Of a DNA stretch of 62,367 nucleotides, positions 163 through 41,680 are shown one piece after another. The notes beneath the pieces were generated by a model. It had not been told where the DNA came from, did no database searches, and worked only from the letters and a program-made list of their open reading frames with translations. Position 1 is the first letter of the stretch, and each line of letters starts with the position of its first letter. A program made the translations under genes and the position numbers. Origin of the DNA: Candidatus Hydrogenedentota bacterium (GTDB lineage Bacteria; Hydrogenedentota; Hydrogenedentia; Hydrogenedentales; SLHB01); NCBI GenBank assembly GCA_016209895.1, contig JACQVH010000053.1:1-62367 (forward strand), written 5' to 3'.

Positions 163-684
163 TTACAGGAAGTTGCGCGCGTCAACGATGTATCCGTTGG
201 TGGCATCGTCCGTATCCTTGATCGAGGTCATGCCTGGCCGCAGGTAGAGCTGGCCCAGGGCGACACAGTTGCTATCCGGATCGGGAGCGGTTGGACTGGC
301 GGCCTCGGTCCCGGTTTTGACCGCTACGTCCCAGGCGTCCAGCCGAGCCTGCACCAAGTCTATGCGCGGATTAGTTGTGGGCGGAGTCACGGCGGTAGTC
401 GCCGTGGCCGCGCCCAACTTGTACGGGAACTGCGAAATGAACGCGTATCCGGGCTTGACCTGAACGGTCAGTCCGGGCGGAGAAGTCGCGGTGACCTTCA
501 GATCGTCGCTGGTGGCATGGCGCACCACGCCATCGCCGCCGCCCCAAGCGAGGCTCAGCAGAAAGTGGATCAGTTCGAGCGCCGCCTCGATCCGGTCGTC
601 CCACGTATTCAGTTTAGACGAGGCGACCGGGCGTTCCGCGTAGTTCCAAGTAGTTTTTGTGTAAGCCTTGCCTAAGATTGCCAT
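163..684 (-). CDS. Phage tail-tip/fibre-base-like protein (173 aa)
   Basis: ATG at 684 with a GGAGG SD. N-terminus YTKTTW..P..SSKLN.WDD.IE and motifs GLTVQVKPGYAF, PRIDLV, G..A..P.AP, LGQLYL resemble siphovirus fibre/baseplate attachment domains. Last gene after Dit and hub. Confidence 0.6.
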   Translation of the reverse strand: MAILGKAYTKTTWNYAERPVASSKLNTWDDRIEAALELIHFLLSLAWGGGDGVVRHATSDDLKVTATSPPGLTVQVKPGYAFISQFPYKLGAATATTAVTPPTTNPRIDLVQARLDAWDVAVKTGTEAASPTAPDPDSNCVALGQLYLRPGMTSIKDTDDATNGYIVDARNFL

Positions 685-724
685 GTTGTCCTCCAAGATG
701 CGGCGATGTTCGCAAAATTTGTGA

Positions 725-2464
725 TCAATCGAGATGGAACTGCAGGTCCAGTCCGACGACCGTGTCATCGAGTCGGAATTGGAAGAAGGTTTCGGGGTCG
801 GGTTGGCTGCGCGTCATGGAATCAATAGGATTCTGCACCGAGCGCAACGGCGACGTGAGTTGTACAGTCGTAACCGCGTGTTTGCCTTCAAACCGGTGCG
901 TAACTTCGCGAACCCGACCCACCAACCTTCCGCGAAAACGGTCATCCCACTCCCCGTCTACTTCCGGCTCGAGCCGGCGTAGCGGGCCGCCGCGCAGTTC
1001 AACGATATCCCCCACCTGCACGGCGCCGTGTCCACGAAAACATACGACGGCGCCGCTCGGTTCCGGGTAGGCCAAGTCCTTCAAAAGTCCTTCAATAAGT
1101 TGGTCGGCATCCAGTTCCGACGAAATCGAGTAAAGCACGAGGTCTCGCGCCCGCTCGCCGTACGTTGCAAGACTCTCTGCAGACTGATACGTCTTCTTGA
1201 CCGCGGCTTCGAGCGGATTCCCTTCGAAATAGATAGTATTGGCGACTTGGGTGGAATCAGAACCGAGCGTCACGCCCATCGCGACCGGGTTGAAGAACCA
1301 GACGTGGTCCGGTTGTTCGGCGCGCCGAAAGCTGACGGCAAGACGCGGGTCCACCGACCAGATGAATCCGTCCGCGGCATAGGCGAGCGCGGTGAGAATT
1401 TCGTACAGACCCGCCGACACATCCAATGCGTTCATTACCACGTCGGTGGCTTCGATCGAATCGTCTTGGGCGCTCGAATAGGAGAGGTAATCCTTCAATT
1501 CCATCTCCGGGACGAGGTAGCGCCCGTCCTCATAAAGGTAAACGTCCGCGTGGCCCAACTCGACCATCGCAGCGTTCAGGCATTTGTCGTCGCCATAGAC
1601 CAGGCCGACGTAGCGCCCGTAGGCGTCCACCCGATTATCGAACTCGCCCACAGAATCCCGGTGTGGGTTCAGTTCGATAAAGTCGATCCCTTCGGAATCC
1701 AGCAACCCTTGAAGCGCGGCCTTTGCTTCGTCGGCGCGCAGCTTATATCCGCTACGCGAGTATTGCGCTTCGGTCCAAGACTCGATCTCCGGGTGGCGAG
1801 TGATAGCATGGGAATTTCGGGAGGTCTCTTCGCAATCAATCATCATTAGACGGAAGTCGGGCCAAGGTTGTCCGTCAATCACCAGGCCTCCAATCGTATC
1901 ACCGTCAATGGCGTAGGCGGCGGAAGCGTCAATCCGCGTTCCCCCCACCCATTGCCCGGCGGAAATACCGCCCACTTCGAGTTCGTTCTCGGCAGTCTTT
2001 CGGGTGAGAAACTTCTGATACTCGCGGGTTGCTCCGTCCGGATACGCCTCGTGTGCGACTCGATAATGCGCCGGACCCAAGGCGGAATTAGTAGCGTGTT
2101 TGACGATCGCGCTGATTTCGGCGTCGCGATAGGCTTGCACTACGGACCTGCTGCCGTCGCGGGGTGGGCGCCCGGCTTCGAACGTCACCACTTCATGAAA
2201 ATGGACGTAGCGGTCGAGGATAAGTTTCCGGGCATCGCTCCATTGCGGGGCCAAACGAGTCACTTTCGCCTCGCAAAACAACGCGCCATTGACCAGCACG
2301 CGAACTCGGTAGGCGGGACCGAGACTGGCAATGGTTCCCGGCAGTATCCCGCGAATCGAGTCGGCCTGGTCGGGTGTGGCGCGTGTAACCTCCAGAAGCG
2401 GCGTCTCGTCAAAATGAGCAATGCGCCGGCCCCAAGTGTCGTACACCTCGATGCGATAATTCAT
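725..2464 (-). CDS. Phage tail hub / Tal-like baseplate protein (about 579 aa)
   Basis: Follows Dit (ATG 2464, 2 nt after the Dit stop; alternative start 2473). C-terminal pattern N.IY..G...S...YG.....I.....A......L...GD.V....V.EV.H is typical of phage hub proteins. Confidence 0.7.
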   Translation of the reverse strand: MNYRIEVYDTWGRRIAHFDETPLLEVTRATPDQADSIRGILPGTIASLGPAYRVRVLVNGALFCEAKVTRLAPQWSDARKLILDRYVHFHEVVTFEAGRPPRDGSRSVVQAYRDAEISAIVKHATNSALGPAHYRVAHEAYPDGATREYQKFLTRKTAENELEVGGISAGQWVGGTRIDASAAYAIDGDTIGGLVIDGQPWPDFRLMMIDCEETSRNSHAITRHPEIESWTEAQYSRSGYKLRADEAKAALQGLLDSEGIDFIELNPHRDSVGEFDNRVDAYGRYVGLVYGDDKCLNAAMVELGHADVYLYEDGRYLVPEMELKDYLSYSSAQDDSIEATDVVMNALDVSAGLYEILTALAYAADGFIWSVDPRLAVSFRRAEQPDHVWFFNPVAMGVTLGSDSTQVANTIYFEGNPLEAAVKKTYQSAESLATYGERARDLVLYSISSELDADQLIEGLLKDLAYPEPSGAVVCFRGHGAVQVGDIVELRGGPLRRLEPEVDGEWDDRFRGRLVGRVREVTHRFEGKHAVTTVQLTSPLRSVQNPIDSMTRSQPDPETFFQFRLDDTVVGLDLQFHLD

Positions 2465-2466
2465 GC

Positions 2467-3153
2467 TCACCACCAGCGGTCGTGAAAGGCTACCGTGACG
2501 CTCGCCGTGTGCGAACTCGCCGCGTCATCCGTGTAGATGAGCGTTGTGCCATCCGGCGCGATTTCGGGAAAGCTCCCCCGGGAATACGGCGTCACGTCGT
2601 CGCCGTCGAGTCGGACTTCCCCCAATGCGCCGTCGAAGACCAAGGTCGCGCCATCGGCCACGATGCCCGAATAACCGATGAGATGGACCCCGTCGCTGAA
2701 ACTGGGATTGACGATTTCCCCGGCGGCCACCAGCGTGATTACGGGACCGGTTGTCGCATTCCCGCCGGACGAGAAGGCGCGAGTTGCGCCCGAGGCCGTG
2801 ATACTCCACACGACGCTTGTAGCTTGTGCGGATTCCTCGAAGGGGTCCTTCGCCAGCAGGCGCAGTTCGAACGAACCCACCAAGGCGGCAGCGGAGACCT
2901 CGCGCGTGAACGCGTCGCGGCGCACCCAAAGACGTCGCCCGGCCCGCAGGGAAAGTTCGGCGGAAAAGTCTTCCTTCGAGGCGGCGTCGAGAATGGCATC
3001 CAGTTCCGCCTCGATGGCCGCCACCGTCGTTTTGCCGAGAACGAGTCCTTCGATTTCGATTCGACGCGCGTCCCGGCCCCCGACCTCCTCGTGTTTTTCG
3101 CGGACCGTGGTATTGGCGTCGTCAAACGTATAGTCGCTGAGCGTGATGGGCAC
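2467..3153 (-). CDS. Distal tail protein (Dit / siphovirus tail family)
   Basis: LLAKDPF motif, GPVITL, LVFDG...V.LDG, GSFPEIAPDGTTLIY match the Dit-type tail family; position fits. Confidence 0.75.
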   Translation of the reverse strand: MPITLSDYTFDDANTTVREKHEEVGGRDARRIEIEGLVLGKTTVAAIEAELDAILDAASKEDFSAELSLRAGRRLWVRRDAFTREVSAAALVGSFELRLLAKDPFEESAQATSVVWSITASGATRAFSSGGNATTGPVITLVAAGEIVNPSFSDGVHLIGYSGIVADGATLVFDGALGEVRLDGDDVTPYSRGSFPEIAPDGTTLIYTDDAASSHTASVTVAFHDRWW

Positions 3154-3155
3154 GG

Positions 3156-3566
3156 TTAGTCTTCTCCGAGTATGGGCTGGCTATCGGTGGCGGAGGCGAT
3201 CGTGTGCGGCGGCACTTCAAGCAGGTAGGGTTCGAGCAGGTACCAGGCCTGCTTTTCGACCAGCGCTGCCACGCTCATCAGCGCGGCAAACCGGCTGCCC
3301 TCTTCGAGACGCTGACTTCCGATGGAGACGCGTTTCTGCTCGGCGGCGTCTTTCCCCGCGATTGACCGGAAGAGGTGCGCTGTCGCCAAGAGCGTCTCCC
3401 CGACCACAATCGCATCTTCCGGCGGGTCCGCGTTGTAGAGCGGGTCCAGGAAACGGAGCAACTCGGTATGAGCGTCCGTAATGCTGGCGTTCACCAGGAC
3501 CGAAGGGACAAGGGTCGTATCGTTCAACTGAAACTTGTCGCGGACGTTTTGTTCCGTCGTAAACAT
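3156..3566 (-). CDS. Head-tail connector/adaptor protein (136 aa)
   Basis: Small, predicted alpha-helical ORF directly downstream of the MCP, with GGAG SD; ends with LLEPY, typical of adaptors. Confidence 0.6.
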   Translation of the reverse strand: MFTTEQNVRDKFQLNDTTLVPSVLVNASITDAHTELLRFLDPLYNADPPEDAIVVGETLLATAHLFRSIAGKDAAEQKRVSIGSQRLEEGSRFAALMSVAALVEKQAWYLLEPYLLEVPPHTIASATDSQPILGED

Positions 3567-3728: not shown

Positions 3729-4778
3729 TCAGGTCCAATCGCTTTGAACCACGAGACGCGCCTTCTCGTAGATGATGGCGAAGTCCGTCACCACCGTCAG
3801 ATAGGTGCGGTCCCACTGTTGGTTGATGAGTTTGTCGCTCTCGACCAGCAAGTCCTGCTCGGTGAGCTTCTGCGCCGCATAGCCCGCGTCAAGGATCGTG
3901 AGCTTGTTGGCGGGCTGGTCCACCATCGGGGTCAGGCGCACGCCAAGCGGTGTCGGCAGGTTTCCGGTCTTCGCGAAATCGAACAACGCCGCTTCCTTGA
4001 ACTCATCGAGGTTCAGGATAGTTTGACAGAGGTCCGAATTCGCGAGCAGGTGCGTGGGCGTGAAATAGTGTTCCAGCGTGAGCTTCATGAAGCCTTTGAC
4101 GATGTCGCTGTAGGTCCACGTCCCGGCCGTCGCGGTATTCACCGTGACCGGGGCCGTGCCGCTGCCCGACGAGTCGCCGGAGACCAGGATCAAGGCCAAC
4201 CGCGCGTCGAGGCTGCGGCCCAGGCGCTCGCCGATGCGCTGTAAATGCACGCGCAACATGTCCACCGACATCCGGCGGATCACTTCGTACGACGCGAGCA
4301 CGCCCCGGCCTTTTTTGTCCAACCGGACAATCCGGTCGCCGTAGGTGATCGCCGATTCGGGGATTGCCGCGCCCTCGGCCACACCGCGCAATTCTTCTTC
4401 GTCCGCCGACTCCTGGACGTAGGGAACGTCGTACGCCGTGCCGTCAATGGATTCGTCGCGGATGATCAGTTCCGGATACACCGGTTTCCGTTTCAGCCCG
4501 GCCAACACGGCTTCGCGAACGATGTCCGGGAACAGCCACTTGGTGTTCGGGTCGGTCTGGAAGAAACGGTCCACGGTGATCTTATGGACATCAATGCCGA
4601 ACTCCTGCGCGCAGTAGTCCTCGACGTTGGTCCCGAGGGCGCGGAAAAACTGGAAGTGGCTCAAGCCGAGCGTTTCCAGTGAATCATACAGGACCCGCCC
4701 GCGAATCTGTTGGAGCCGGTCCGCGGTTTGACTCAGGAACGCGATGCGTTCCTTCACTTTCTCGTTGTAGTACGCCAT
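3729..4778 (-). CDS. Major capsid protein, HK97 fold (349 aa)
   Basis: LFPDIVREAV..G, VAEGAAIPESAITYG....RLDKKGRGVLASYEVIRRMSVDML..HLQRIG..LG..LD pattern (E-loop and spine helix); follows the protease and cement genes. Confidence 0.9.
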   Translation of the reverse strand: MAYYNEKVKERIAFLSQTADRLQQIRGRVLYDSLETLGLSHFQFFRALGTNVEDYCAQEFGIDVHKITVDRFFQTDPNTKWLFPDIVREAVLAGLKRKPVYPELIIRDESIDGTAYDVPYVQESADEEELRGVAEGAAIPESAITYGDRIVRLDKKGRGVLASYEVIRRMSVDMLRVHLQRIGERLGRSLDARLALILVSGDSSGSGTAPVTVNTATAGTWTYSDIVKGFMKLTLEHYFTPTHLLANSDLCQTILNLDEFKEAALFDFAKTGNLPTPLGVRLTPMVDQPANKLTILDAGYAAQKLTEQDLLVESDKLINQQWDRTYLTVVTDFAIIYEKARLVVQSDWT

Positions 4779-4791
4779 ACCTTTTCCCTTC

Positions 4792-5172
4792 TTACAGCAG
4801 CACGTGCACTTGGCTGGCTGCGGTATCCACTTTCACGTTGATGCCCCGGCCATTACCCGAAGCCGGCGCTTTGACTTTGCCGTTGGTGGCCGAGGCGACG
4901 ATGCCCTGCGTGCCGTTCACGGCCGGCGCGCTGTCCGTGTACCCGAAGATGCACACGCCGCGAACTTTCACGGGGATTGCCGCGCCATTCTGGTCCGAAT
5001 TCGCCAAGGCCTGGCCGAACACCACGTCCTCGGCGTCGGTGTCGTTGTTCACGATGTACGCGCCGCTCAGCTTGAGCGCGTCGCCGCGCGCAACGTTAAC
5101 CGTCCCGGACGCCGGCAACTGACAAGTGATCACCAGTTCGGTGACGGTGCCTCCGATATCTCCAAAAGCCAT
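4792..5172 (-). CDS. Capsid cement/decoration protein (DUF2190-like, 126 aa)
   Basis: Gly/Ala/Val-rich beta protein (GDALKL, VFGQAL, IPVKVRGV) immediately upstream of the MCP; AAGGAG SD. Confidence 0.7.
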   Translation of the reverse strand: MAFGDIGGTVTELVITCQLPASGTVNVARGDALKLSGAYIVNNDTDAEDVVFGQALANSDQNGAAIPVKVRGVCIFGYTDSAPAVNGTQGIVASATNGKVKAPASGNGRGINVKVDTAASQVHVLL

Positions 5173-5190: not shown

Positions 5191-5324
5191 AGTGGTCAGT
5201 GACCAGTGGCCAGTGACCAGGTACTCGTTGCTCATTGCTCATTGCTCATTGCTCATTGCTCGTTGCTCATTGCTCGTTGCTCATTGCTTATTGCTCATTG
5301 CTCATTGCTCGTTGCTCATTGCTT
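5191..5324. repeat. Heptamer tandem array: 4x AGTGRYC, 1x GGTACTC, 14x RTTGCTY
   Basis: Read directly: agtggtc agtgacc agtggcc agtgacc a ggtactc, then (a/g)ttgct(c/t) x14 from 5227 to 5324. Confidence 0.95.
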
Positions 5325-6024
5325 ATTTCTCGCGCAGGATGGCGAAGGCGTCAGCGGCGCGCCCATCGTGGGCCGTGTCCGGCAGAGGTTCGGGACGCGA
5401 TTGCGGACTGGGCGGATACTTGCCGTCGAAGCGCACTTCGAATGCCCGCAATTGGACATGGATTTCCTCGAGGCTCAGCGAATTCAGCGCCTTGCGCCAG
5501 GTCGCCTCGTCAAACGTCATGCCATCCAGTTCCCGGCCCAGACCACAGAGCCGTTCGATCGAGCGCCGGCGCGCGGTCACACCGTCGGCGATGAGACGCG
5601 CCGCGTCTTCGGCCGACGCCTTGAGTTCCTTAAGCGTGTCTCGAATCTCCCGAATACGCTGAATCGGGAGACCCTCGACGCGTTCAACACACAAGCGGCG
5701 CGCGCCGGCGCGGCCCCGAAGCAACACGACGAATCGAGTGGGCGACTTCTCGAGCCAGGTGTAAACACCGGAGTCTTCGCGCACCGCGTCGCCATCCTGG
5801 TCCAGCCAGTGCAAGCCATGCGGAGCCTTCTCCGTAGCCCACGGCCCGTTCTCGAGAGACGATGCGTCCACACGCCATCCCTGCAGATAACCGGCCCGTT
5901 CGAGACGAATGTCCAGGTGCGGCCCGGCCGCGTCGTGATGACGCTGAATTACAAAGCGGCCGTCCGGCTGTCCTTCGGCCACAGATTCGCTCGCGTCAGT
6001 TTCCGATGTGATCTTCCAAAACAT
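5323..6024 (-). CDS. LigD 3'-phosphoesterase-like domain fused to a helical/coiled-coil C-terminus (233 aa), in the scaffold-gene position
   Basis: GRFVIQRHHDAAGPHLDIRLE..GYLQGWRV...ATEKAPH...DSGVY aligns by eye with the PE-domain pattern RFVVQ.H.A..LH.D.RLE.DGVL.SWAV...EDH...WD.G.Y. Confidence 0.65.
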   Translation of the reverse strand: MFWKITSETDASESVAEGQPDGRFVIQRHHDAAGPHLDIRLERAGYLQGWRVDASSLENGPWATEKAPHGLHWLDQDGDAVREDSGVYTWLEKSPTRFVVLLRGRAGARRLCVERVEGLPIQRIREIRDTLKELKASAEDAARLIADGVTARRRSIERLCGLGRELDGMTFDEATWRKALNSLSLEEIHVQLRAFEVRFDGKYPPSPQSRPEPLPDTAHDGRAADAFAILREK

Positions 6025-6035
6025 GTCGTTTTCCT

Positions 6036-6230
6036 TTACGTCTTAAGCAACTGCTGCGCCAGACTCATCACTACCCCCGCCAAATTGGCGACGAGCAGGA
6101 CCACACCCCGCGCCAGCGTAGACTCGAGACTCCGAACGCGCTGCTTCAACTCCTCGATGTCGCCGCTCAAATGCCGAAACTGAATCTCATGAACCAATTC
6201 ATATGGACAATTGCTACGCAAGCGTCTCAT
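6036..6230 (-). CDS. Small coiled-coil plus single-TM protein (64 aa), holin/XhlA-like
   Basis: ATG 6230 with a GGGGA SD; heptad segment IEELKQRVRSLE followed by hydrophobic GVVLLVANLAGVVMSL. Confidence 0.55.
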   Translation of the reverse strand: MRRLRSNCPYELVHEIQFRHLSGDIEELKQRVRSLESTLARGVVLLVANLAGVVMSLAQQLLKT

Positions 6231-6285
6231 GCCATCAATCCCCAATCAGCTTTTCCCAAACTCGTCACTCATTGCTCATTGCTTC

Positions 6286-6975
6286 TTACTCTTCCGCCCA
6301 CCACCGTTTCGACCACACTTCAACCGGCCGGTGATACTCGCTTCGGGCCAGGACCAGCGCCCGGTCCAGCGACAGCGTGCGTTCCTGGGCGATGAAATGC
6401 GTGCCCTGAGAGCCCGCCGGTACGACGGAGCCTTCAATCACTTCCAGGACTCCCCGCATGATGCAGTGACAGGTCGCGTCCGCGTAGGTACGTCCGGGCA
6501 CGTGGTCGCACGTGCGCAGGTCGCGGCTGCAGATGGAACATTCCGGCGTTTGGAACGAGAACCCGATCGAGGTCTCGCGATAGACGCCGCCCTCGATATT
6601 CAAGATGAAATCTTCATTCTCGCGGGTTCGAAGGACGTATACATCCGGTCGCGCGGACACGCGCTCGCCTTCTCGGTGCAATTGACAGCGAAAGAATGTC
6701 CCGCGCGGCAACGACCCGCGCAGATCGTGGCGCTCCATCAATGGCCGACCCGGGACCATCCGGTTGATCTTCTCCAATTCCTCTTCAGGAAATCGGCTGA
6801 AGTGCCGGTCCATTTGGTTGTGGCAAAGGTCAAGGGTAAACACTTCGAACTCTTCGCGCCGCAACGGTCGAAGCGCGAATACGTTGACTTCCTCGACCAC
6901 GGGGTCCGCGTCGTCCCGCGCGCGCATGCCGATCAGCACTCCCTCGTGCCGAAATATGAATGGGTCCAAGTTCAT
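6286..6975 (-). CDS. Prohead (head maturation) protease with Zn-finger insert (229 aa)
   Basis: ATG 6975 with a GAGGAG SD. LCHNQMDRHFSRF, MERH (His), GGVYRETSIGF (Ser), CSIC...C.H.PG..Y....C, IEGSVV (Glu). Confidence 0.85.
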   Translation of the reverse strand: MNLDPFIFRHEGVLIGMRARDDADPVVEEVNVFALRPLRREEFEVFTLDLCHNQMDRHFSRFPEEELEKINRMVPGRPLMERHDLRGSLPRGTFFRCQLHREGERVSARPDVYVLRTRENEDFILNIEGGVYRETSIGFSFQTPECSICSRDLRTCDHVPGRTYADATCHCIMRGVLEVIEGSVVPAGSQGTHFIAQERTLSLDRALVLARSEYHRPVEVWSKRWWAEE

Positions 6976-7056
6976 CTGATTCTTCTCCTCAATTCCTGAA
7001 ATCCGATGATTACCGCTCCGCGTTTCATCCTTCACACTTCATCATTCAGACTTGTC

Positions 7057-8304
7057 TCACCGGCCGATCTCGATTCCCAAGGTCTTCGCCGCCGCCCGCT
7101 GGTCCAGAAACCCTTCGTTGCGCAATTGCACCGCGTTGGCGATCTCCCGGCCCCGGGCCGTGGCTTCCTTCAGCACGTCCACCGTCCGGTTCGCGCGCAT
7201 GTGGACGCGCGCGCGCGCGCTGCCCCACATCAGCGCCAACTCAAAGTTGTACAGGCGTTCGAGGATGCGTTTGACGCTGCGGTTCACGGCTTCCACCTGA
7301 CGGTTGATAATCTCGAACTGCGCCGTGCCATAGGTTTCGGTCGTGCCATAGTTGCGGCCGAGAAGGATCGGCATGAGGTGCATACCCGTGATGATTTGCT
7401 CTTCGATGGCCTTGTGGTTCTCGTAAAATACCTGGGAACGTTGGTCCCCACGGATAAGCTCCACGCTCACGTTATCGTAGGTAACCAAGTTTTGATCCGC
7501 TTCCCGCTTGGTCAATTGGTCCCGGAGTTGCGCGAAATCGCGGTCCTTCCGCTGTGCGTACGCCTCCGCCGATTCACCGCGTTCCTTCGGTTCCGGCGTA
7601 TACTTCGCGTGCAGTTTGGCCCACCCCGCGTTATGCGTCGCTTTGGCCATATCTTCGAGCAGGCGCTGCTGAATCCTCACCACAAACGGGACCGAGCGCA
7701 GCATCGAGCGCCCGTACGGATTGGTGCCGTCCCGATCCAATCCCACGTAGATGAACCGCTCTTTCGGAAGTCGTAGCTCCTTGCCTTCGTGCACCTGGTA
7801 CGGCTGGAGGCCGCCGCCCTCGCGCTTGAATCGCACTGTCCACACGTCCACCGGGACCACGTCGAATATGGACTCCCGGCTCTGCGACAGCACGACCTCG
7901 AGGGCGGCGGCCCCGTAGGTGAAGAGGGAGGTGTAGAAGAGGTCCAGAAGTCCGTCCATGCCGCGGTCGCCGCTGTTCACGCGCGTGTCCAGTTCGCGCA
8001 ACAGCCGCAACGCGCGGTCCCGGGCAATCTCTGAAGAAGGCTCAAGAATCTCGATGTCGTAGCCCGTCTGACATAGACGTTTCCAGGTCCATACTGCATC
8101 CGAAATATCCGGGATGGCATCCCGCAAGAAGCGATAGACTCGAAGCATAAAGAATGGCGTCTCATTCGGGAGGCGCACGAACGCGTCCAAAGAACCTCCA
8201 AGCATGGGGGAATCCTCGGGGCGCGTCACGGTTTGAAACGTCTCCACTCGAACTCCCCGCACTCGGTTTTCCCGCCGTTTACGTTTTCGCCACCACGTCA
8301 TCAT
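7057..8304 (-). CDS. Phage portal protein (about 415 aa)
   Basis: FIYVGLDRDGTNPYGRSMLRS portal-type motif, LFTYGAAALE, I..G..L.P.LLG; first gene of the head module. Confidence 0.85.
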   Translation of the reverse strand: MMTWWRKRKRRENRVRGVRVETFQTVTRPEDSPMLGGSLDAFVRLPNETPFFMLRVYRFLRDAIPDISDAVWTWKRLCQTGYDIEILEPSSEIARDRALRLLRELDTRVNSGDRGMDGLLDLFYTSLFTYGAAALEVVLSQSRESIFDVVPVDVWTVRFKREGGGLQPYQVHEGKELRLPKERFIYVGLDRDGTNPYGRSMLRSVPFVVRIQQRLLEDMAKATHNAGWAKLHAKYTPEPKERGESAEAYAQRKDRDFAQLRDQLTKREADQNLVTYDNVSVELIRGDQRSQVFYENHKAIEEQIITGMHLMPILLGRNYGTTETYGTAQFEIINRQVEAVNRSVKRILERLYNFELALMWGSARARVHMRANRTVDVLKEATARGREIANAVQLRNEGFLDQRAAAKTLGIEIGR

Positions 8305-8446
8305 TCGTCGGCTCTCCCAAGTATCTCTCCATATATATAGCCCCGGCCGTTGCACTCCCCAGTCAAGGCGAGAACGAACGCAACTCTAGGCAGATTCAGG
8401 AGATGGATGCAGTTCGAAGGCCCAAAATGACCCCCTAAATAAATTC

Positions 8447-10941: not shown

Positions 10942-11031
10942 GCATGACTTGTCCGATTGGTCCGACGTGTCCGACCCGTCAGACTGGTCCGAAAGGTCCG
11001 ACGGGTCAGACTGGTCCGACCGGCCTGACCA
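10942..11031. repeat. 9-mer tandem array, GTC(C/A)GANNN x about 10
   Basis: gtccgattg gtccgacgt gtccgaccc gtcagactg gtccgaaag gtccgacgg gtcagactg gtccgaccg. Confidence 0.9.
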
Positions 11032-26661: not shown

Positions 26662-26991
26662 ATGAGTGGGGCGATTATGGCGCCGGATGGGGAAAAAGCA
26701 GACGCAACTACCACACTCTCGGGCCCGCAAAAGGGTGATTTCATAGCGCCGCCGCCGGTCTCGGACACGGACGAGCGTGTGGACGCCGTGCATTACGTGG
26801 GCGACATCGTCGCCGACTTCTTCTGCGGCGGTGGCACGACTGCGGCGGTCGCGCAGCGGTCGGGTCGGCGTTGGATTGCATTTGATCAGTCGCGGGTGGC
26901 CGCGGCCATCACCATGGCGCGAATCGCCTGCAAAGTGCAGGATGACATGGGCGGCGAAGGACTTTGGGCCGGAGAGGTGGACGTAAAGTGA
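26662..26991 (+). pseudogene. C-terminal remnant of an N6/N4 DNA methyltransferase (Mod-like)
   Basis: DIVADFFCGGGTTAAVAQRSGRRWIAFD (SAM-binding motif I) with no catalytic DPPY region upstream. Confidence 0.8.
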
Positions 26992-28187
26992 GTGCTGTTG
27001 CGAGGTTTGAGTGGGTGAATCCAAGCTGTCTCAAGGAAGCCCGAGAACGACTTCGCCTAGCTCGCGAGGACGTCGTCGATCAAGCAAAGCATCTCGGCGA
27101 CGAATACGAGGGGATCACGCCAAGGGCCTTGGAATTGTGGGAGGCAGGTACCAAGGAGCCGGAACTCCGCCACTTGGAGGCGCTTTCGCAGATTTACGTC
27201 TGCCCGGTGGGTTGGTTCTTTCTTCCGAGTGTTCCAGCCGAGCCTTTTGCGCTCGATTTCCGTGGCGTAGCTCCAGGGGCGAAGGTTGGCGGGCGCGGTA
27301 TGCAGACACTTTCAAGATTCCTCGAACTCGCGGACTGGGCCGAGGAGCTGGCGATCCAAACCAGCCAATTCATCGCCACCCGCATCGGACAGACCAGCCT
27401 ACAAGATGAAATGTCCGAACTGGTGGCGGCTGAACGACGAAGACTTGGTTTTGATGCACGTATTCGCTCAACGTGGCATAGCAGCGATGACGCATTCGAT
27501 TGGTGGCGGCATCAAATCGAAGATTTGGGCATTTTCTGCTTTGTAATGCGCTTGCCTACCAGTGAGGTGCGCGGCGCTTCGTACTGGGGTAAGCGTGGAG
27601 CGGCGTTTATCCTGGTCAACAGTGAGGATGCCGAGGCCGCCACTGGACGAACCTTTACACTGCTGCACGAGTACGCGCACCTCATGCTCCACGAGAATCT
27701 CGTATGCGACTTCAGAGGTTCGAAAAACGGTGCCAAAATAGAACGGTTTGCCAACGGATTTGCCGCCGCGATGCTATTGGACCGTTCCGAATTGAGTGCA
27801 AGCCTTAAAGAGCTTGACGCTACCCAGTTTCGAAGCCAATGGGGGGACGCCATGCTGGACCGGATTCGTGAGCCATTCCGAGTCAGCCGTGATGTCGTCG
27901 CCATTTATCTGGAAGAACTCGGACTGGCCCCCAAAGGACTATACAACGAGAGGCGCGGCGTATGGTCAAAACGCAAGGCATTTGGAAGATCTGCCGCTGG
28001 CCGCGTTGGCCGTAATCTGACGGCGCAACGGTTGAGGATGGTCGGAAACACGCTTGCCAAAGTTCTTTCTTCAAAGCAGGCCGAAGCTACCTTGTCCGCT
28101 CTTGACCTTGCAGAAGTCTTGGATGTCAAGGTCGAAAGAGTTCCCGCCGTTCTGCAAGCCTTTAGACACGCTGGAGGCCATGGGTGA
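26988..28187 (+). CDS. XRE-HTH plus ImmA/IrrE metallopeptidase (399 aa)
   Basis: GTG 26988; N-terminal HTH (LKEARE..WEAG..EP..L..L); FTLLHEYAH (HExxH), E.FAN.FAAA.LL. Confidence 0.9.
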   Translation: MSAVARFEWVNPSCLKEARERLRLAREDVVDQAKHLGDEYEGITPRALELWEAGTKEPELRHLEALSQIYVCPVGWFFLPSVPAEPFALDFRGVAPGAKVGGRGMQTLSRFLELADWAEELAIQTSQFIATRIGQTSLQDEMSELVAAERRRLGFDARIRSTWHSSDDAFDWWRHQIEDLGIFCFVMRLPTSEVRGASYWGKRGAAFILVNSEDAEAATGRTFTLLHEYAHLMLHENLVCDFRGSKNGAKIERFANGFAAAMLLDRSELSASLKELDATQFRSQWGDAMLDRIREPFRVSRDVVAIYLEELGLAPKGLYNERRGVWSKRKAFGRSAAGRVGRNLTAQRLRMVGNTLAKVLSSKQAEATLSALDLAEVLDVKVERVPAVLQAFRHAGGHG

Positions 28188-36722: not shown

Positions 36723-38297
36723 GTGCCGACGTTGGATTGGATTGGGAAGAAGGCGGTACTGAATCATCATCGGGAGGTGCCGTTCCGTTTGTTGAAGACG
36801 GAACCGAGTCTGTCGGTGGGCGATCCGAATTGCGGGAATCTGTTGGTGCAGGGGGATAATCTGCATGCGCTGAAAGCGTTGCTTCCTTATTACGCGGGGC
36901 AAGTAAAGTGCATCTACATTGATCCACCGTACAACACCGGCAATGAGAATTGGACGTACAATGACGCCGTGAACAGTCCGGAGATGCGGGACTGGTTGGG
37001 GAAAGTCGTCGGGCGCGAAGCGGAGGACTTGTCCCGGCACGACAAATGGCTGTGTATGATGTACCCGCGGCTCTGCTTGTTGCGGCAGTTCCTGCGGGAC
37101 GACGGACTAATCTTCGTTCAAATTGGTCACGAGGAGTCGGCACATCTGAGATTGCTCCTAGATGAGGTATTTGGAACCTTCAGAAACGCGATAGTCGTGC
37201 GAAGAGGAATTAAGAATGTTCAAGCACAATTTGCGACTGTGGATTCATTGGCAAGCGCGCACGATTTGATTTATTGCTACTCTCGACGGCAGGGCCTTCG
37301 CATTCCCAGACTTCAACATGAATTAGGTGATAATGTCGCCGGCAAATGGGACACGTTTTGGCGCGGGACCGACCGGCCCACTATGCGTTACGATCTGTTT
37401 GGAGATAGACCCGAAACAGGACAATGGCGGTGGAAAGAAGAGAGGGCAAGGAGGGCCGTGAGGGCATACGAGGACTACCTGGCCACGTTTTCGCACGATC
37501 ATACGCTCGACGAATACTATGTCAAAATTCTTACAGAACAAGGTGTGGACCTGGATTTTGTGCGGCAAGACGAGAGCGGAACAGTGCAATACTATGTACC
37601 CCCGCGATCTTACAAGATCATCGGCGACGTGTGGATGGATGTGAGTACGTCCGGCACGGTCACTGATTTTCCACATGAGAAACACCTCGAATTGCTTGCG
37701 CGGATTCTGCAATGGGTCACGGGTCCAGAAGATATTATCCTTGACTCATTTGCCGGAAGCGGGTCTACCGCTCATGCGGTTCTCGAACTGAACAAAGCAG
37801 ATGCCGGAAACCGACGCTTCTTGCTTGTTGAAATGGATGAGCAAATCTGCAGGACGGTGACCGCAACACGGATTACGAAGCTCGTATCCGGCGGTACAAC
37901 TGATTTGCCCGGTCTGGACGGCGGATTCCGGTATGCGACCCTTGGCGAGCCGTTGTTCGATGCGAGCGGCAACATCCGGTCCGATGTTGGATTCGCGGAC
38001 TTGGCGGCGCATATCTTTTTCGTGGCGACGGGGGTGCCGTTGCCGAAACGGAAGAATGGCAAGACGCCGCTGCTGGGCGCGCACAATGGGGTAGGGGTTT
38101 ATTTGCTGTACAACGGCATCTTGGGGGATCAGACAAGCAACGGCGGCAACGTGCTGACGCGGGCGGTGTTGGAGCAATTGCCGCCGCATGACGGAACCAA
38201 GGTGATTTATGGGACGGGCTGCCGCATTGGGGCAGACCGGTTGAAGCGAGACAACATCGTGTTCCGGCAGATTCCGTATCACGTGAGGGTGGAGTAG
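36723..38297 (+). CDS. mod: Type III R-M adenine methyltransferase (Mod)
   Basis: MPTLDWIGK, GDNL.ALK.L, CIYIDPPYNTG, IILDSFAGSGST.HAV motifs. Confidence 0.92.
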   Translation: MPTLDWIGKKAVLNHHREVPFRLLKTEPSLSVGDPNCGNLLVQGDNLHALKALLPYYAGQVKCIYIDPPYNTGNENWTYNDAVNSPEMRDWLGKVVGREAEDLSRHDKWLCMMYPRLCLLRQFLRDDGLIFVQIGHEESAHLRLLLDEVFGTFRNAIVVRRGIKNVQAQFATVDSLASAHDLIYCYSRRQGLRIPRLQHELGDNVAGKWDTFWRGTDRPTMRYDLFGDRPETGQWRWKEERARRAVRAYEDYLATFSHDHTLDEYYVKILTEQGVDLDFVRQDESGTVQYYVPPRSYKIIGDVWMDVSTSGTVTDFPHEKHLELLARILQWVTGPEDIILDSFAGSGSTAHAVLELNKADAGNRRFLLVEMDEQICRTVTATRITKLVSGGTTDLPGLDGGFRYATLGEPLFDASGNIRSDVGFADLAAHIFFVATGVPLPKRKNGKTPLLGAHNGVGVYLLYNGILGDQTSNGGNVLTRAVLEQLPPHDGTKVIYGTGCRIGADRLKRDNIVFRQIPYHVRVE

Positions 38298-41562: not shown

Positions 41563-41680
41563 GGGTTCAGGGTCTCGGGTCTCATTGCTAGTTGCGCATT
41601 GCTCGGTACTCGGCGCTCAGTACCCGGTACTCATTGCTCGTTGCTCGTTGCTCATTGCTCCTACTCGGAACTCGGAACTG
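41563..41680. repeat. Mosaic heptamer array: 14 units in unbroken register, one 6-mer, then 2 more units
   Basis: gggttca gggtctc gggtctc attgcta gttgcgc attgctc ggtactc ggcgctc agtaccc ggtactc attgctc gttgctc gttgctc attgctc ctactc ggaactc ggaactg. Confidence 0.92.

Follow-up and report, generated by a model that had tools for sequence, protein, structure and literature searches.

The window analysed here (the whole stretch of DNA, 62,367 nucleotides) carries a minus-strand cluster of phage-like genes, arranged in the order portal, protease-like p249, p69, a gene encoding a 233-aa protein, decoration-like p126 and major capsid protein (MCP), with further structural genes beyond (Table 1). 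The 233-aa gene is an intact ORF with an ATG start, and its stop codon occupies positions 5323–5325. The CTCATTG array fills the spacer between this gene and p126 and lies outside the protein; read depth and contig breaks place an assembly join on it. Promoter and terminator scans gave scores no better than those of shuffled sequences, and the sequencing runs containing the 233-aa gene are DNA metagenomes only. Ten ORFs of medium size in other parts of the window are cellular.

Table 1 Features of the capsid module and of the 233-aa gene in the window.
Feature	Position	Strand	Evidence
Portal protein	7057..8355	-	Pfam Portal_Mu 1.5e-9; phrog_3753 4.7e-51
p249, prohead-protease-like, without scaffold extension	6286..7035	-	phrog_16951 1.8e-30
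p69, small conserved protein directly upstream of the 233-aa gene	6036..6245	-	ORF; same position in many loci
Two-domain protein (PE-like N-domain and orphan helical C-terminal domain)	5323..6024	-	ORF calling, AF2 pLDDT 90
N-terminal domain, aa 1–116, divergent LigD 3'-phosphoesterase-type beta-barrel, eight predicted strands	5677..6024	-	PDB profile, Foldseek, out-of-family HMM matches
Hairpin, aa 22–43 (GRFVIQRHHDAAGPHLDIRLER), with H29, H36, D38, R40, E42	5896..5961	-	Alignment with MbaPE
aa 69–73 (HGLHW): H69, phosphate-binding His equivalent; W73, in the catalytic-site Tyr position	5806..5820	-	Alignment with MbaPE
C-terminal four-helix domain, aa 117–233	5326..5676	-	Invariant residues, AF2 pLDDT 89
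Heptamer array (CTCATTG) x15	5224..5331	.	TRF; read depth and contig breaks
p126, small virion structural protein, decoration-like	4792..5172	-	phrog_4588 1.5e-9
Major capsid protein (HK97-type)	3729..4778	-	Pfam Phage_capsid_4 1.7e-13; phrog_3922 5e-51
p136, conserved small protein, head-completion/adaptor position	3156..3566	-	Position only; conserved in loci
Dit-like distal tail protein	2467..3153	-	phrog_33 9.4e-13; Pfam SPP1_Dit 3.3e-4, below cut-off
p582, hub-like protein with internal SNase domain	725..2473	-	Pfam SNase 2.7e-5
p201, virion/baseplate-like structural protein	163..768	-	phrog_9534, phrog_20556, others

The portal is 54–81% identical across loci. In p249, the invariant residues are H103, S156 and a Zn-ribbon-like C166/C169/C176/H178 set, from which the putative catalytic residues are assigned by motif only. 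The Flavonifractor phage Cormatin has a p249 homologue, flanked by the portal and MCP genes, that carries the annotation 'major head and protease protein'. Neither the p249 nor the p126 profile found a match in the PDB, and the protease assignment therefore draws only on motifs, position and phage annotation. In phage MT835769 a p126-homologous 117-aa gene has the protease on one side and the MCP on the other, and residues 1–348 of the MCP align end to end with the 343-aa MCP of the same phage; our MCP lacks a long delta domain. p69 combines a coiled-coil-like N-terminal part with a hydrophobic C-terminal helix and has no family match in Pfam or PHROGs, nor has p136 in Pfam, PHROGs or NCBIfam. 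The hub-like p582 contains a staphylococcal-nuclease (SNase) domain at residues ~183–317 (1523–1927), which matches PDB thermonucleases at E-values down to ~1e-7 and keeps the equivalents of D19, D21, R35, D40, E43 and R87 in 40–44 of 44 homologues. Homologues of p201 are 172–173 aa long, so translation probably begins at the internal ATG at 681. In other species, the segment from protease to MCP accepts unrelated inserted genes; these variable inserts and the last genes of the module have no match in Pfam or PHROGs.

The module, which runs from the portal to the baseplate-like gene over ~8–10 kb, is collinear in ~80 Hydrogenedentota species and is under purifying selection. The 233-aa gene itself is present in 92 GTDB species, nearly all labelled Hydrogenedentota, and also lies inside the module in a distant lineage where the protein is 38% identical. 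Module and flanks co-diverge: flank genes are common to 20 of 25 species pairs at MCP identity of at least 85%, compared with 12 of 769 pairs below 80%. Estimates of dN/dS fall between 0.035 and 0.34 in 68 of the 70 module gene pairs, the exceptions being p126 at 0.42 and 0.61. For the 233-aa gene the values are 0.055–0.215 (eight species pairs), or 0.07–0.27 for the N-domain and 0.04–0.24 for the C-terminal domain. The flanks examined contain no integrase, replication or lysogeny genes, and searching up to 10 kb from the module revealed no gene for a terminase, integrase, tube or tape measure. Searches by tblastn with Cormatin TerL and TerS and with the ORF in the TerL position of the unannotated MT835769 found no match in 87 loci (1.2 Mb) or in the window; sheath and tube queries were likewise without match in all loci and the window. 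The phage-like gene set is a chromosomal heirloom of the phylum Hydrogenedentota. The original prediction placed the gene in a capsid module; this module is not that of an ordinary prophage, being vertically inherited, Hydrogenedentota-wide and, as far as these searches reach, without a terminase. We found no literature on such a module in this phylum.

The original prediction concerned the 233-aa protein, and the ORF does hold the sequence on which it was based, RFVIQRHHDAAGPHLDIRLE ... ATEKAPHGLHW. We identified 244 homologues of ~230 aa each, none of which carries a precomputed Pfam domain (0/244); the 233-aa protein scored nothing above threshold against Pfam, PHROGs and NCBIfam. A scan of 2.9 million viral contigs in IMG/VR detected no relative, Foldseek against viral predicted structures (BFVD) returned no match at E <= 1e-3, and tblastn against 50,697 GenBank phage records left the protein unmatched even at E = 1. 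A literature search combining LigD, phosphoesterase, phage and capsid found no paper. Thus, no phage counterpart of the fusion described below was found in these collections, and none in the literature.

Sequence profiles and structure prediction assign residues ~1–116 to a divergent member of the LigD 3'-phosphoesterase (PE) superfamily, and this assignment holds. When the single sequence was compared with the PDB by phmmer, the top three matches were all PE structures (3p43, E = 0.0045; 3p4h, 0.0051; 5dmp, 0.077). A profile of 34 homologues improved the E-values to 4.1e-6 and 3.4e-5, and its five best PDB matches were again all PEs (3p43, 3p4h, 5dmp, 2lj6 and 3n9b). The AlphaFold2 (AF2) model of the 233-aa protein, with a pLDDT of 90, places eight strands within residues 2–116. 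Submitted to Foldseek, this model matched PE structures in the top seven PDB positions (E = 4e-6 to 9e-5, probability 1.00), with target TM scores of 0.61–0.64 for the archaeal minimal PEs; the PE beta-barrel first proposed for the N-terminal half is backed by both profile and predicted fold. Among 1.84 billion proteins, HMM matches outside the family are stand-alone PEs and proteins of LigD size, and they cover profile positions ~23–118 only. Pfam LigD_N was matched by all eight of the out-of-family proteins tested, seven of them above the gathering score. The 233-aa protein falls below the cut-offs of both Pfam PF13298 LigD_N (16.4 versus 31.1 bits) and TIGR02777 (24 versus 144 bits). Taken together, the similarity of the N-domain to LigD PE exceeds chance.

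The LigD phosphoesterase domain is a DNA-break repair tool with many stand-alone relatives. In contrast to the NHEJ setting of the superfamily, its partners (Ku and the LigD ligase and polymerase domains) are absent from the 233-aa protein, and none was found among the module neighbours in the window or in loci L001, L002, L004 and L087, where the neighbours are capsid-module genes and unrelated cellular genes. Many stand-alone PEs are likewise without such an association, and NHEJ is therefore not a defining feature of the superfamily.

The N-domain resembles the stand-alone minimised archaeal PEs (CkoPE, 117 aa, 3p4h; MbaPE, 3p43) and PaePE (3n9b/2lj6) in size and in its predicted eight-stranded barrel. 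Residues H29, H36, D38, R40, H69 and W73 align with MbaPE H36, H42, D44, R46, H78 and Y82, so that five catalytic positions are identical and the sixth is Trp; H29, H36 and D38 are, by this alignment, the equivalents of the metal triad. In PaePE, two His and an Asp (H42, H48 and D50) coordinate Mn2+, and an Arg and a His (R52 and H84) bind phosphate. Also shared with these enzymes are a Gln/His two residues ahead of the first His and a Glu after the Arg. The 74 species-level homologues keep H29 and H36 in 72 cases each and D38, R40, H69 and W73 in 73 each, with all six retained in 72. Alignment and conservation therefore support the view that the His/His/Asp triad, the Arg and the downstream His have been retained and that Trp stands in place of Tyr88, with W73 invariant (73/74). 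The predicted His-x5-His spacing proved incorrect, as the family shows His-x6-His. H29 is the conserved metal-ligand His, and the neighbouring H30 is not, its position being occupied by various residues (R/H/T/C/N/V) across the family; this gives a family motif of H-x6-H-x-D-x-R.

[quoted passage not shown] A conserved M-[FY]-W strand at the N-terminus probably takes the place of the lost last strand. The change from Tyr to Trp need not abolish catalysis, since a Tyr-to-Ala mutant of CkoPE still gave 23% substrate conversion, compared with >90% for the wild type (PMC3082917). Judged by its sequence, the N-domain is apparently an active copy of a DNA-end-cleaning domain.

Unlike the archaeal PEs and PaePE, the 233-aa protein is fused to an orphan helical domain and is encoded in a capsid module without an NHEJ partner. 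The fused domain is predicted to form helices at residues 121–133, 138–170, 173–180, 185–202 and 219–231. It carries two conserved motifs, DGxTARRRAIERLCGLGRELDG and LRAYEVRFDxKYPP, beyond which come a Pro-rich linker and, at the very end, an amphipathic helix (AxAILRE). Searched alone against the PDB, it gave no sequence-profile match and a best Foldseek E-value of 2.3, and an HMM search of 1.84 billion proteins detected no relatives outside its own family. The tail of ~115 aa had been described as amphipathic helices: it is indeed predicted to be helical by AF2, but it is a strongly conserved orphan domain and not a generic amphipathic scaffold.

The original prediction depended on homologues conserving the triad, which nearly all do; a few lineages do not. 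In the P0139/L083 and P0156 lineages, which have lost the catalytic residues, identity to the window protein is 19–23% in the N-domain and 52–68% in the C-terminal domain. The collapse of N-domain identity once the catalytic residues go suggests that the active site is what constrains this domain, and the persistence of 52–68% identity in the other half points to a separate function that is indispensable to the module. The two domains are independent of each other.

The 233-aa gene occupies the scaffold slot of the capsid module. It lies between the protease-like gene and the decoration-like and MCP genes, as proposed at the outset, and a survey of this placement shows a fixed gene order in ~80 loci; it invariably sits between p69 and p126 across ~80 species. 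By hhalign, p249 matches a 312-aa protein of the uncultured phage MT835769 with 99.5% probability. The phage protein bears an additional charged helical C-terminal extension of ~120 aa that is missing from p249, and a separate scaffold-like protein is therefore expected at this slot. The 233-aa family does not itself align with the phage protease-plus-extension protein (hhalign probability 0.1%). Phage scaffolds and protease-scaffold fusions (lambda C/Nu3 type; MT835769) share with the 233-aa protein the slot between prohead protease and decoration protein or MCP, a helical C-terminal half with a flexible linker and short terminal helix, and an MCP without a long delta domain. The scaffold-type features of our protein are predictions (helices at 121–202, linker, terminal helix at 219–231), and no similarity to scaffolds was found in sequence or fold; it also differs from scaffolds in having an enzyme domain and in being far better conserved.

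Several phage enzymes travel in the head, including the T4 internal proteins and Alt, which use a capsid-targeting sequence, and the P1 Dar proteins; head proteins of the MuF/SPP1 gp7 family are fused to toxin domains. None is homologous to the 233-aa protein. The likeness is purely conceptual, in that an enzymatic domain has a partner segment that delivers it to the procapsid and so lets it accompany the nucleic acid being packaged, and we know of no PE-family phosphoesterase carried in a phage head. In encapsulin systems an HK97-fold shell lacks portal, protease and tail genes and takes up cargo through a terminal loading peptide; we rejected an encapsulin cargo reading because the module does have portal, protease-like, Dit-like and hub-like genes, all of them conserved. 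At the level of the module, the closest parallel is with gene transfer agents of the RcGTA type, which resemble it in collinear structural genes (here in ~80–90 species of one phylum), purifying selection on all genes, co-diverging flanks and a lack of nearby integrase, replication and lysogeny genes. Unlike these agents, the Hydrogenedentota cluster spans just 8–10 kb, and terminase, tail tube and tape-measure genes were not found in or near it.

The reading that we find best, although we put it at somewhat short of probable, is that the C-terminal domain serves to bring a working phosphoesterase into the procapsid. The N-terminal 116 residues are a minimised, divergent PE that, going by its residues, most likely still binds a soft metal (Mn2+) through H29, H36 and D38 and hydrolyses a 3'-terminal phosphoester through R40 and H69. 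The C-terminal 117 residues would attach to the shell during assembly, through MCP and/or portal, and so do the job of the scaffold slot, nucleating or joining the procapsid core and carrying the enzyme inside. The phage-derived module would then build a particle from portal, protease, 233-aa protein, decoration-like protein, MCP, adaptor, Dit and SNase-bearing hub, in which the enzyme may act on particle-associated nucleic-acid 3' ends. A candidate substrate is the 3'-phosphate end of the kind left by an SNase-type nuclease, given the SNase domain conserved in the same module. SNase leaves 3'-phosphates and PE removes them; the pairing of the two here is one of co-occurrence in a single module only. 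Several observations count against this reading: searches of 87 loci and the window detected no terminase near the module, the catalytic residues are missing from a few lineages, the protein falls below the Pfam and TIGRFAM cut-offs, the surroundings of the active site are altered as described above, and the C-terminal domain appears, from profile searches and its predicted fold, unlike any known scaffold or capsid-targeting element, with stronger conservation and a more globular form than scaffolds usually show.

That same unlikeness to scaffolds would suit an accessory enzyme, co-expressed with the module but never in the particle, with a cytoplasmic PE-like domain and a C-terminal domain that docks or regulates some other partner. 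Such an enzyme might prepare or repair DNA ends of material packaged without a linked terminase, or repair 3'-phosphate or cyclic-phosphate damage. Conserved active-site residues and purifying selection are consistent with this, unusual DNA processing is conceivable where no terminase lies nearby, and other species have unrelated genes inserted between protease and MCP. We nevertheless consider it rather unlikely. In contrast to those variable inserts, the gene keeps its p69-p126 position throughout ~80 species; MCP and protease both fail to provide the scaffold that the module requires; and catalytically dead lineages retain the C-terminal domain, which fits assembly better than an enzyme adaptor. 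Those dead lineages, whose modules are apparently intact as far as the contigs reach, agree with a pure scaffold or structural core, in which the PE barrel was co-opted for oligomerisation or spacing and the conserved His, Asp and Arg serve metal-dependent folding or protein contacts instead of catalysis. Location in the scaffold slot, deletion of the loop beside the active site and replacement of the Tyr all point the same way. This seems improbable, however, as the five strictly essential catalytic residues are invariant across 34–74 homologues at ~50% overall identity, very few other positions of the N-domain share this invariance, and the drift of the whole N-domain to ~20% identity upon catalytic loss is the pattern of an enzyme and not that of a spacer. 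Finally, scores below the curated family thresholds are the sole support for a host NHEJ or DNA-repair gene that happens to sit beside prophage genes, or for a chance motif match. We regard this as highly improbable and reject it on synteny and fold: the gene lies inside the module in all ~80 species and in the 38%-identical lineage whatever the flanks, the loci L001, L002, L004 and L087 have no Ku, ligase or polymerase domain among the neighbours, and the fold and profile matches are specific to PE.

A member of the PE superfamily has thus become a fixed component of a capsid-assembly module, fused to a domain without relatives, and its catalytic residues are held across a whole phylum. Were it packaged, it would stand for a novel class of enzymes carried by virions and for a novel type of scaffold construction. 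Should the module produce particles, Hydrogenedentota, a little-known phylum without cultured members, would harbour a domesticated phage element that has not been described before, bearing two conserved enzymes that act on nucleic acids. A bolder picture, to which we give only a small chance, is that the whole phylum vertically inherits a phage-derived particle system without a linked terminase, whose capsid is built around the end-healing scaffold-like enzyme and whose baseplate hub bears the SNase. The two enzymes would work on one particle as a 'cut and heal' pair, serving to take up or transfer DNA or to attack other cells. If true, a domesticated phage machine of a new kind would have been found, carrying the first virion-borne PE enzyme.

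The resemblance of the N-terminal domain (N-domain, aa 1-116) of the PE-like protein to LigD 3'-phosphoesterases (PEs) is real. The protein scores below the Pfam and TIGRFAM cut-offs, and a PDB search with the single sequence ranked three PE structures first, though at no better than E ~0.005. When a profile of 34 homologues was used, the stand-alone archaeal enzymes MbaPE (3p43) and CkoPE (3p4h) were matched at 4.1e-6 and 3.4e-5, respectively, and the best five hits were all PE structures. The AF2 model (pLDDT 90) has eight strands within aa 2-116, followed by helices. For this model Foldseek likewise filled the first seven PDB places with PE structures (E = 4e-6 to 9e-5, probability 1.00), with triphosphate-tunnel and lipocalin barrels ranking after them at much weaker scores. 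Searched with an HMM, 1.84 billion representative proteins yielded the protein's own family as 55 clusters at E <= 1e-10; next came stand-alone proteins of ~120 aa and proteins of 600-800 aa, matched only at profile positions ~23-118. All eight out-of-family matches tested had a Pfam LigD_N match, with seven exceeding the gathering score. With PE structures leading both the profile and the Foldseek searches, the original prediction of a LigD PE-like domain holds, and the fold and chemistry of the N-domain belong to a known superfamily.

In the HMM alignment H29, H36, D38, R40, H69 and W73 align with MbaPE H36, H42, D44, R46, H78 and Y82, the residues that define the PE active site (PMC3082917; PMC3300020). 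They are retained in 72, 72, 73, 73, 73 and 73, respectively, of 74 non-redundant homologues from species-representative genomes. The metal triad, Arg and downstream His of the original prediction are therefore present in nearly all of these homologues, but the proposed His-x5-His spacing is not: it fits the window sequence alone, through H30, a position that varies among homologues. Since the conserved ligand is H29, the family hairpin is one residue longer. In the AF2 model H29 and H36 lie on strands flanking a two-residue turn (32-33), each three residues away, and would thus face each other across the hairpin. W73 replaces the canonical Tyr, as had been proposed; the corresponding Tyr-to-Ala variant of CkoPE kept 23% substrate conversion, compared with >90% for the wild type (PMC3082917). 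In further contrast to canonical PEs, the protein lacks ~10 residues of the active-site-adjacent beta4-beta5 loop as well as the Trp-bearing last strand. This last barrel strand is probably replaced by an N-terminal one (aa 1-9) of the conserved pattern M-[FY]-W-x-[IV], which other PEs do not have; such a replacement would amount to a permutation-like rearrangement of the barrel.

The remainder of the protein had been described as amphipathic helices, but these are not of a generic kind: residues 117-233 carry the invariant motifs DG..AR.....R...LG.EL....F and LR..E.RFD and fold confidently alone (pLDDT 89; helices at 5-17, 22-54, 57-64 and 69-86 in domain numbering), after which the same model has a Pro-rich linker, at low confidence, and a terminal helix. 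No relatives of this C-terminal domain were found in the PDB, by sequence or by fold, or outside its own family among the 1.84 billion proteins. The two domains evolve independently. P0139 and P0156, representatives of 50%-identity clusters with wrecked active sites (locus L083 being the genomic example), share 19-23% identity with the window protein in the N-domain versus 52-68% in the C-terminal domain. A third representative, P0129, has lost both metal-ligand His residues with less drift (43% and 62% identity, respectively). For eight closer species pairs, dN/dS was 0.07-0.27 in the N-domain and 0.04-0.24 in the C-terminal domain. We take these patterns to mean that, wherever the active site survives, selection maintains the N-domain as an enzyme, and that the C-terminal domain serves another purpose, one that no lineage gives up.

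The PE-like gene is an intact ORF of 233 aa with an ATG start, holding the motifs quoted in the original prediction. It is a member of a co-oriented gene run from portal to baseplate or virion-like protein.

Features of the window, with positions, strand where assigned, and matches or remarks
Feature	Position	Remarks
p201, baseplate or virion-like protein		end of gene run, after p582
p582, 582-aa hub-like protein	725-2473 (-)	after Dit-like gene; SNase domain ~1523-1927
Dit-like protein		after p136
p136, 136-aa protein		after MCP
Major capsid protein (MCP)	3729-4778	Phage_capsid_4; phrog_3922 5e-51
p126, 126-aa virion structural protein	4792-5172	phrog_4588
(CTCATTG) x15 array	5224-5331	starts at PE-like stop codon, fills spacer to p126
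PE-like protein	5323-6024 (-)	between p69 and p126; N-terminal strand 5998-6024 (-)
p69, 69-aa protein	6036-6245 (-)	directly upstream of PE-like gene
p249, 249-aa protease-like protein	6286-7035 (-)	phrog_16951
Portal	7057-8355	Portal_Mu 1.5e-9; phrog_3753 4.7e-51
Cellular genes	8540 onward	
Tandem repeat, 9-bp (27-bp), GACTGGTCC x8	10946-11020	just 3' of sodium:solute-symporter-like ORF
IrrE-like M78 peptidase domain protein and N6/N4 DNA methylase	26964-28187 and 36723-38297	may be part of another mobile or defence region
Smaller (CTCATTG) array copy	41630-41657	

The placement in a scaffold slot is supported by the neighbours. H103 and S156 of p249, which lie within HK97-protease-like motifs, are invariant. 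An invariant Zn-ribbon-like cluster (C166-x2-C169 ... C176-x-H178), shared with its phage homologues, is inserted after the putative catalytic Ser. The homologue in Flavonifractor phage Cormatin, encoded between portal and MCP, carries the annotation 'major head and protease protein'. That of uncultured phage MT835769 (hhalign 99.5%) is 312 aa long: to the p249 core it adds a C-terminal extension of ~120 aa, helical and highly charged, such as occurs in protease-scaffold fusions. Downstream lie a p126-like gene and the gene for an MCP of 343 aa, which can be aligned with the window MCP from end to end. With no such extension on p249 and no long delta domain in the window MCP, a scaffold encoded separately is to be expected at the p69/PE-like position. 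The C-terminal domain showed no homology to the MT835769 extension. No family match was found for the small, conserved p69, which looks like a coiled coil in its N-terminal part and has a hydrophobic helix of 20 residues at its C-terminus; it could provide the second half of a scaffold function, or could instead be a membrane protein.

A heptamer array, not found in the 89 related loci, makes up the 150-bp spacer that separates the PE-like gene from p126. Its depth in the source groundwater metagenomes (~700-2000x versus ~8x for the flanks) and the short contigs that break at it indicate a widely dispersed simple repeat. The PE-like/p126 adjacency spans this array, which lies on the assembly join; the same order nevertheless occurs in ~80 other genomes.

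The p582 SNase domain keeps equivalents of D19, D21, R35, D40, E43 and R87 in 40-44 of 44 homologues. SNase-type nucleases leave 3'-phosphates, which PE enzymes remove; p582 products would carry the PE substrate, and the conservation of both within one module may point to a partnership.

In the mechanism that we tentatively favour as the most likely, the protein would be drawn to the growing shell by its C-terminal domain and terminal helix, to play a scaffold-like or core part there. Recruitment would place an active, Mn-dependent 3'-phosphoesterase inside the particle to act on nucleic-acid 3' ends. We regard it as unlikely that the protein is instead a cytoplasmic enzyme, co-expressed with the module and not packaged. 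That the PE barrel was co-opted purely as structure seems more improbable still. Given the synteny and the fold, we reject the readings of a bystander repair gene and of a chance match. Within the reach of the searches, the fusion partner, genomic role and host element that accompany this PE-like domain are undescribed.

The PE-like protein has 244 homologues of ~230 aa, annotated as hypothetical, in Hydrogenedentes MAGs on contigs of up to 4 Mb. Scanning one genome per GTDB species turned it up in 92 of them, almost all with a Hydrogenedentota label. Gene order is collinear in 84 loci (portal, p249, (p69), PE-like, p126, MCP, p136, Dit, p582 and p201), with 54-82% identity to the window for portal and MCP and 38-61% for the PE-like protein; portal to p201 spans 7.8-10.4 kb in 41 complete copies. 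In other species the module is interrupted at fixed points by inserted genes. Those located between protease and p69 encode a 550-aa secreted repeat protein and a 137-aa protein (L015, 7696-9775), a 459-aa protein (L087, 7271-8650) or a 245-aa protein (L002, 8302-9039). Between p126 and MCP, L087 (10727-13544) has an NYN nuclease paired with an AAA_15 ATPase, both encoded on the opposite strand, and in L002 (12255-13346) an IS transposase separates MCP from p136; beyond these three, the inserted genes had no PHROG or Pfam match. Ordinary cellular genes, not the same ones in distant species, flank the module; these flanks are shared by 20 of 25 species pairs with MCP identity >=85% versus 12 of 769 pairs <80%, as expected of a resident, vertically inherited locus. 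Of the 70 gene-pair dN/dS estimates obtained, 68 fell within 0.035-0.34; the other two, both for p126, were 0.42 and 0.61. No integrase, terminase, tube, sheath or tape-measure genes were found within 10 kb of the module or elsewhere in the 62-kb window; packaging machinery, if any, is encoded elsewhere or not known. PHROGs, BFVD, IMG/VR and GenBank phages held no counterpart of the PE-like protein. Given this vertical inheritance, the purifying-range dN/dS and the absence of integrase, terminase and tube genes and of a phage counterpart, the module looks like a domesticated, phage-derived element of these bacteria, GTA-like in its evolution.
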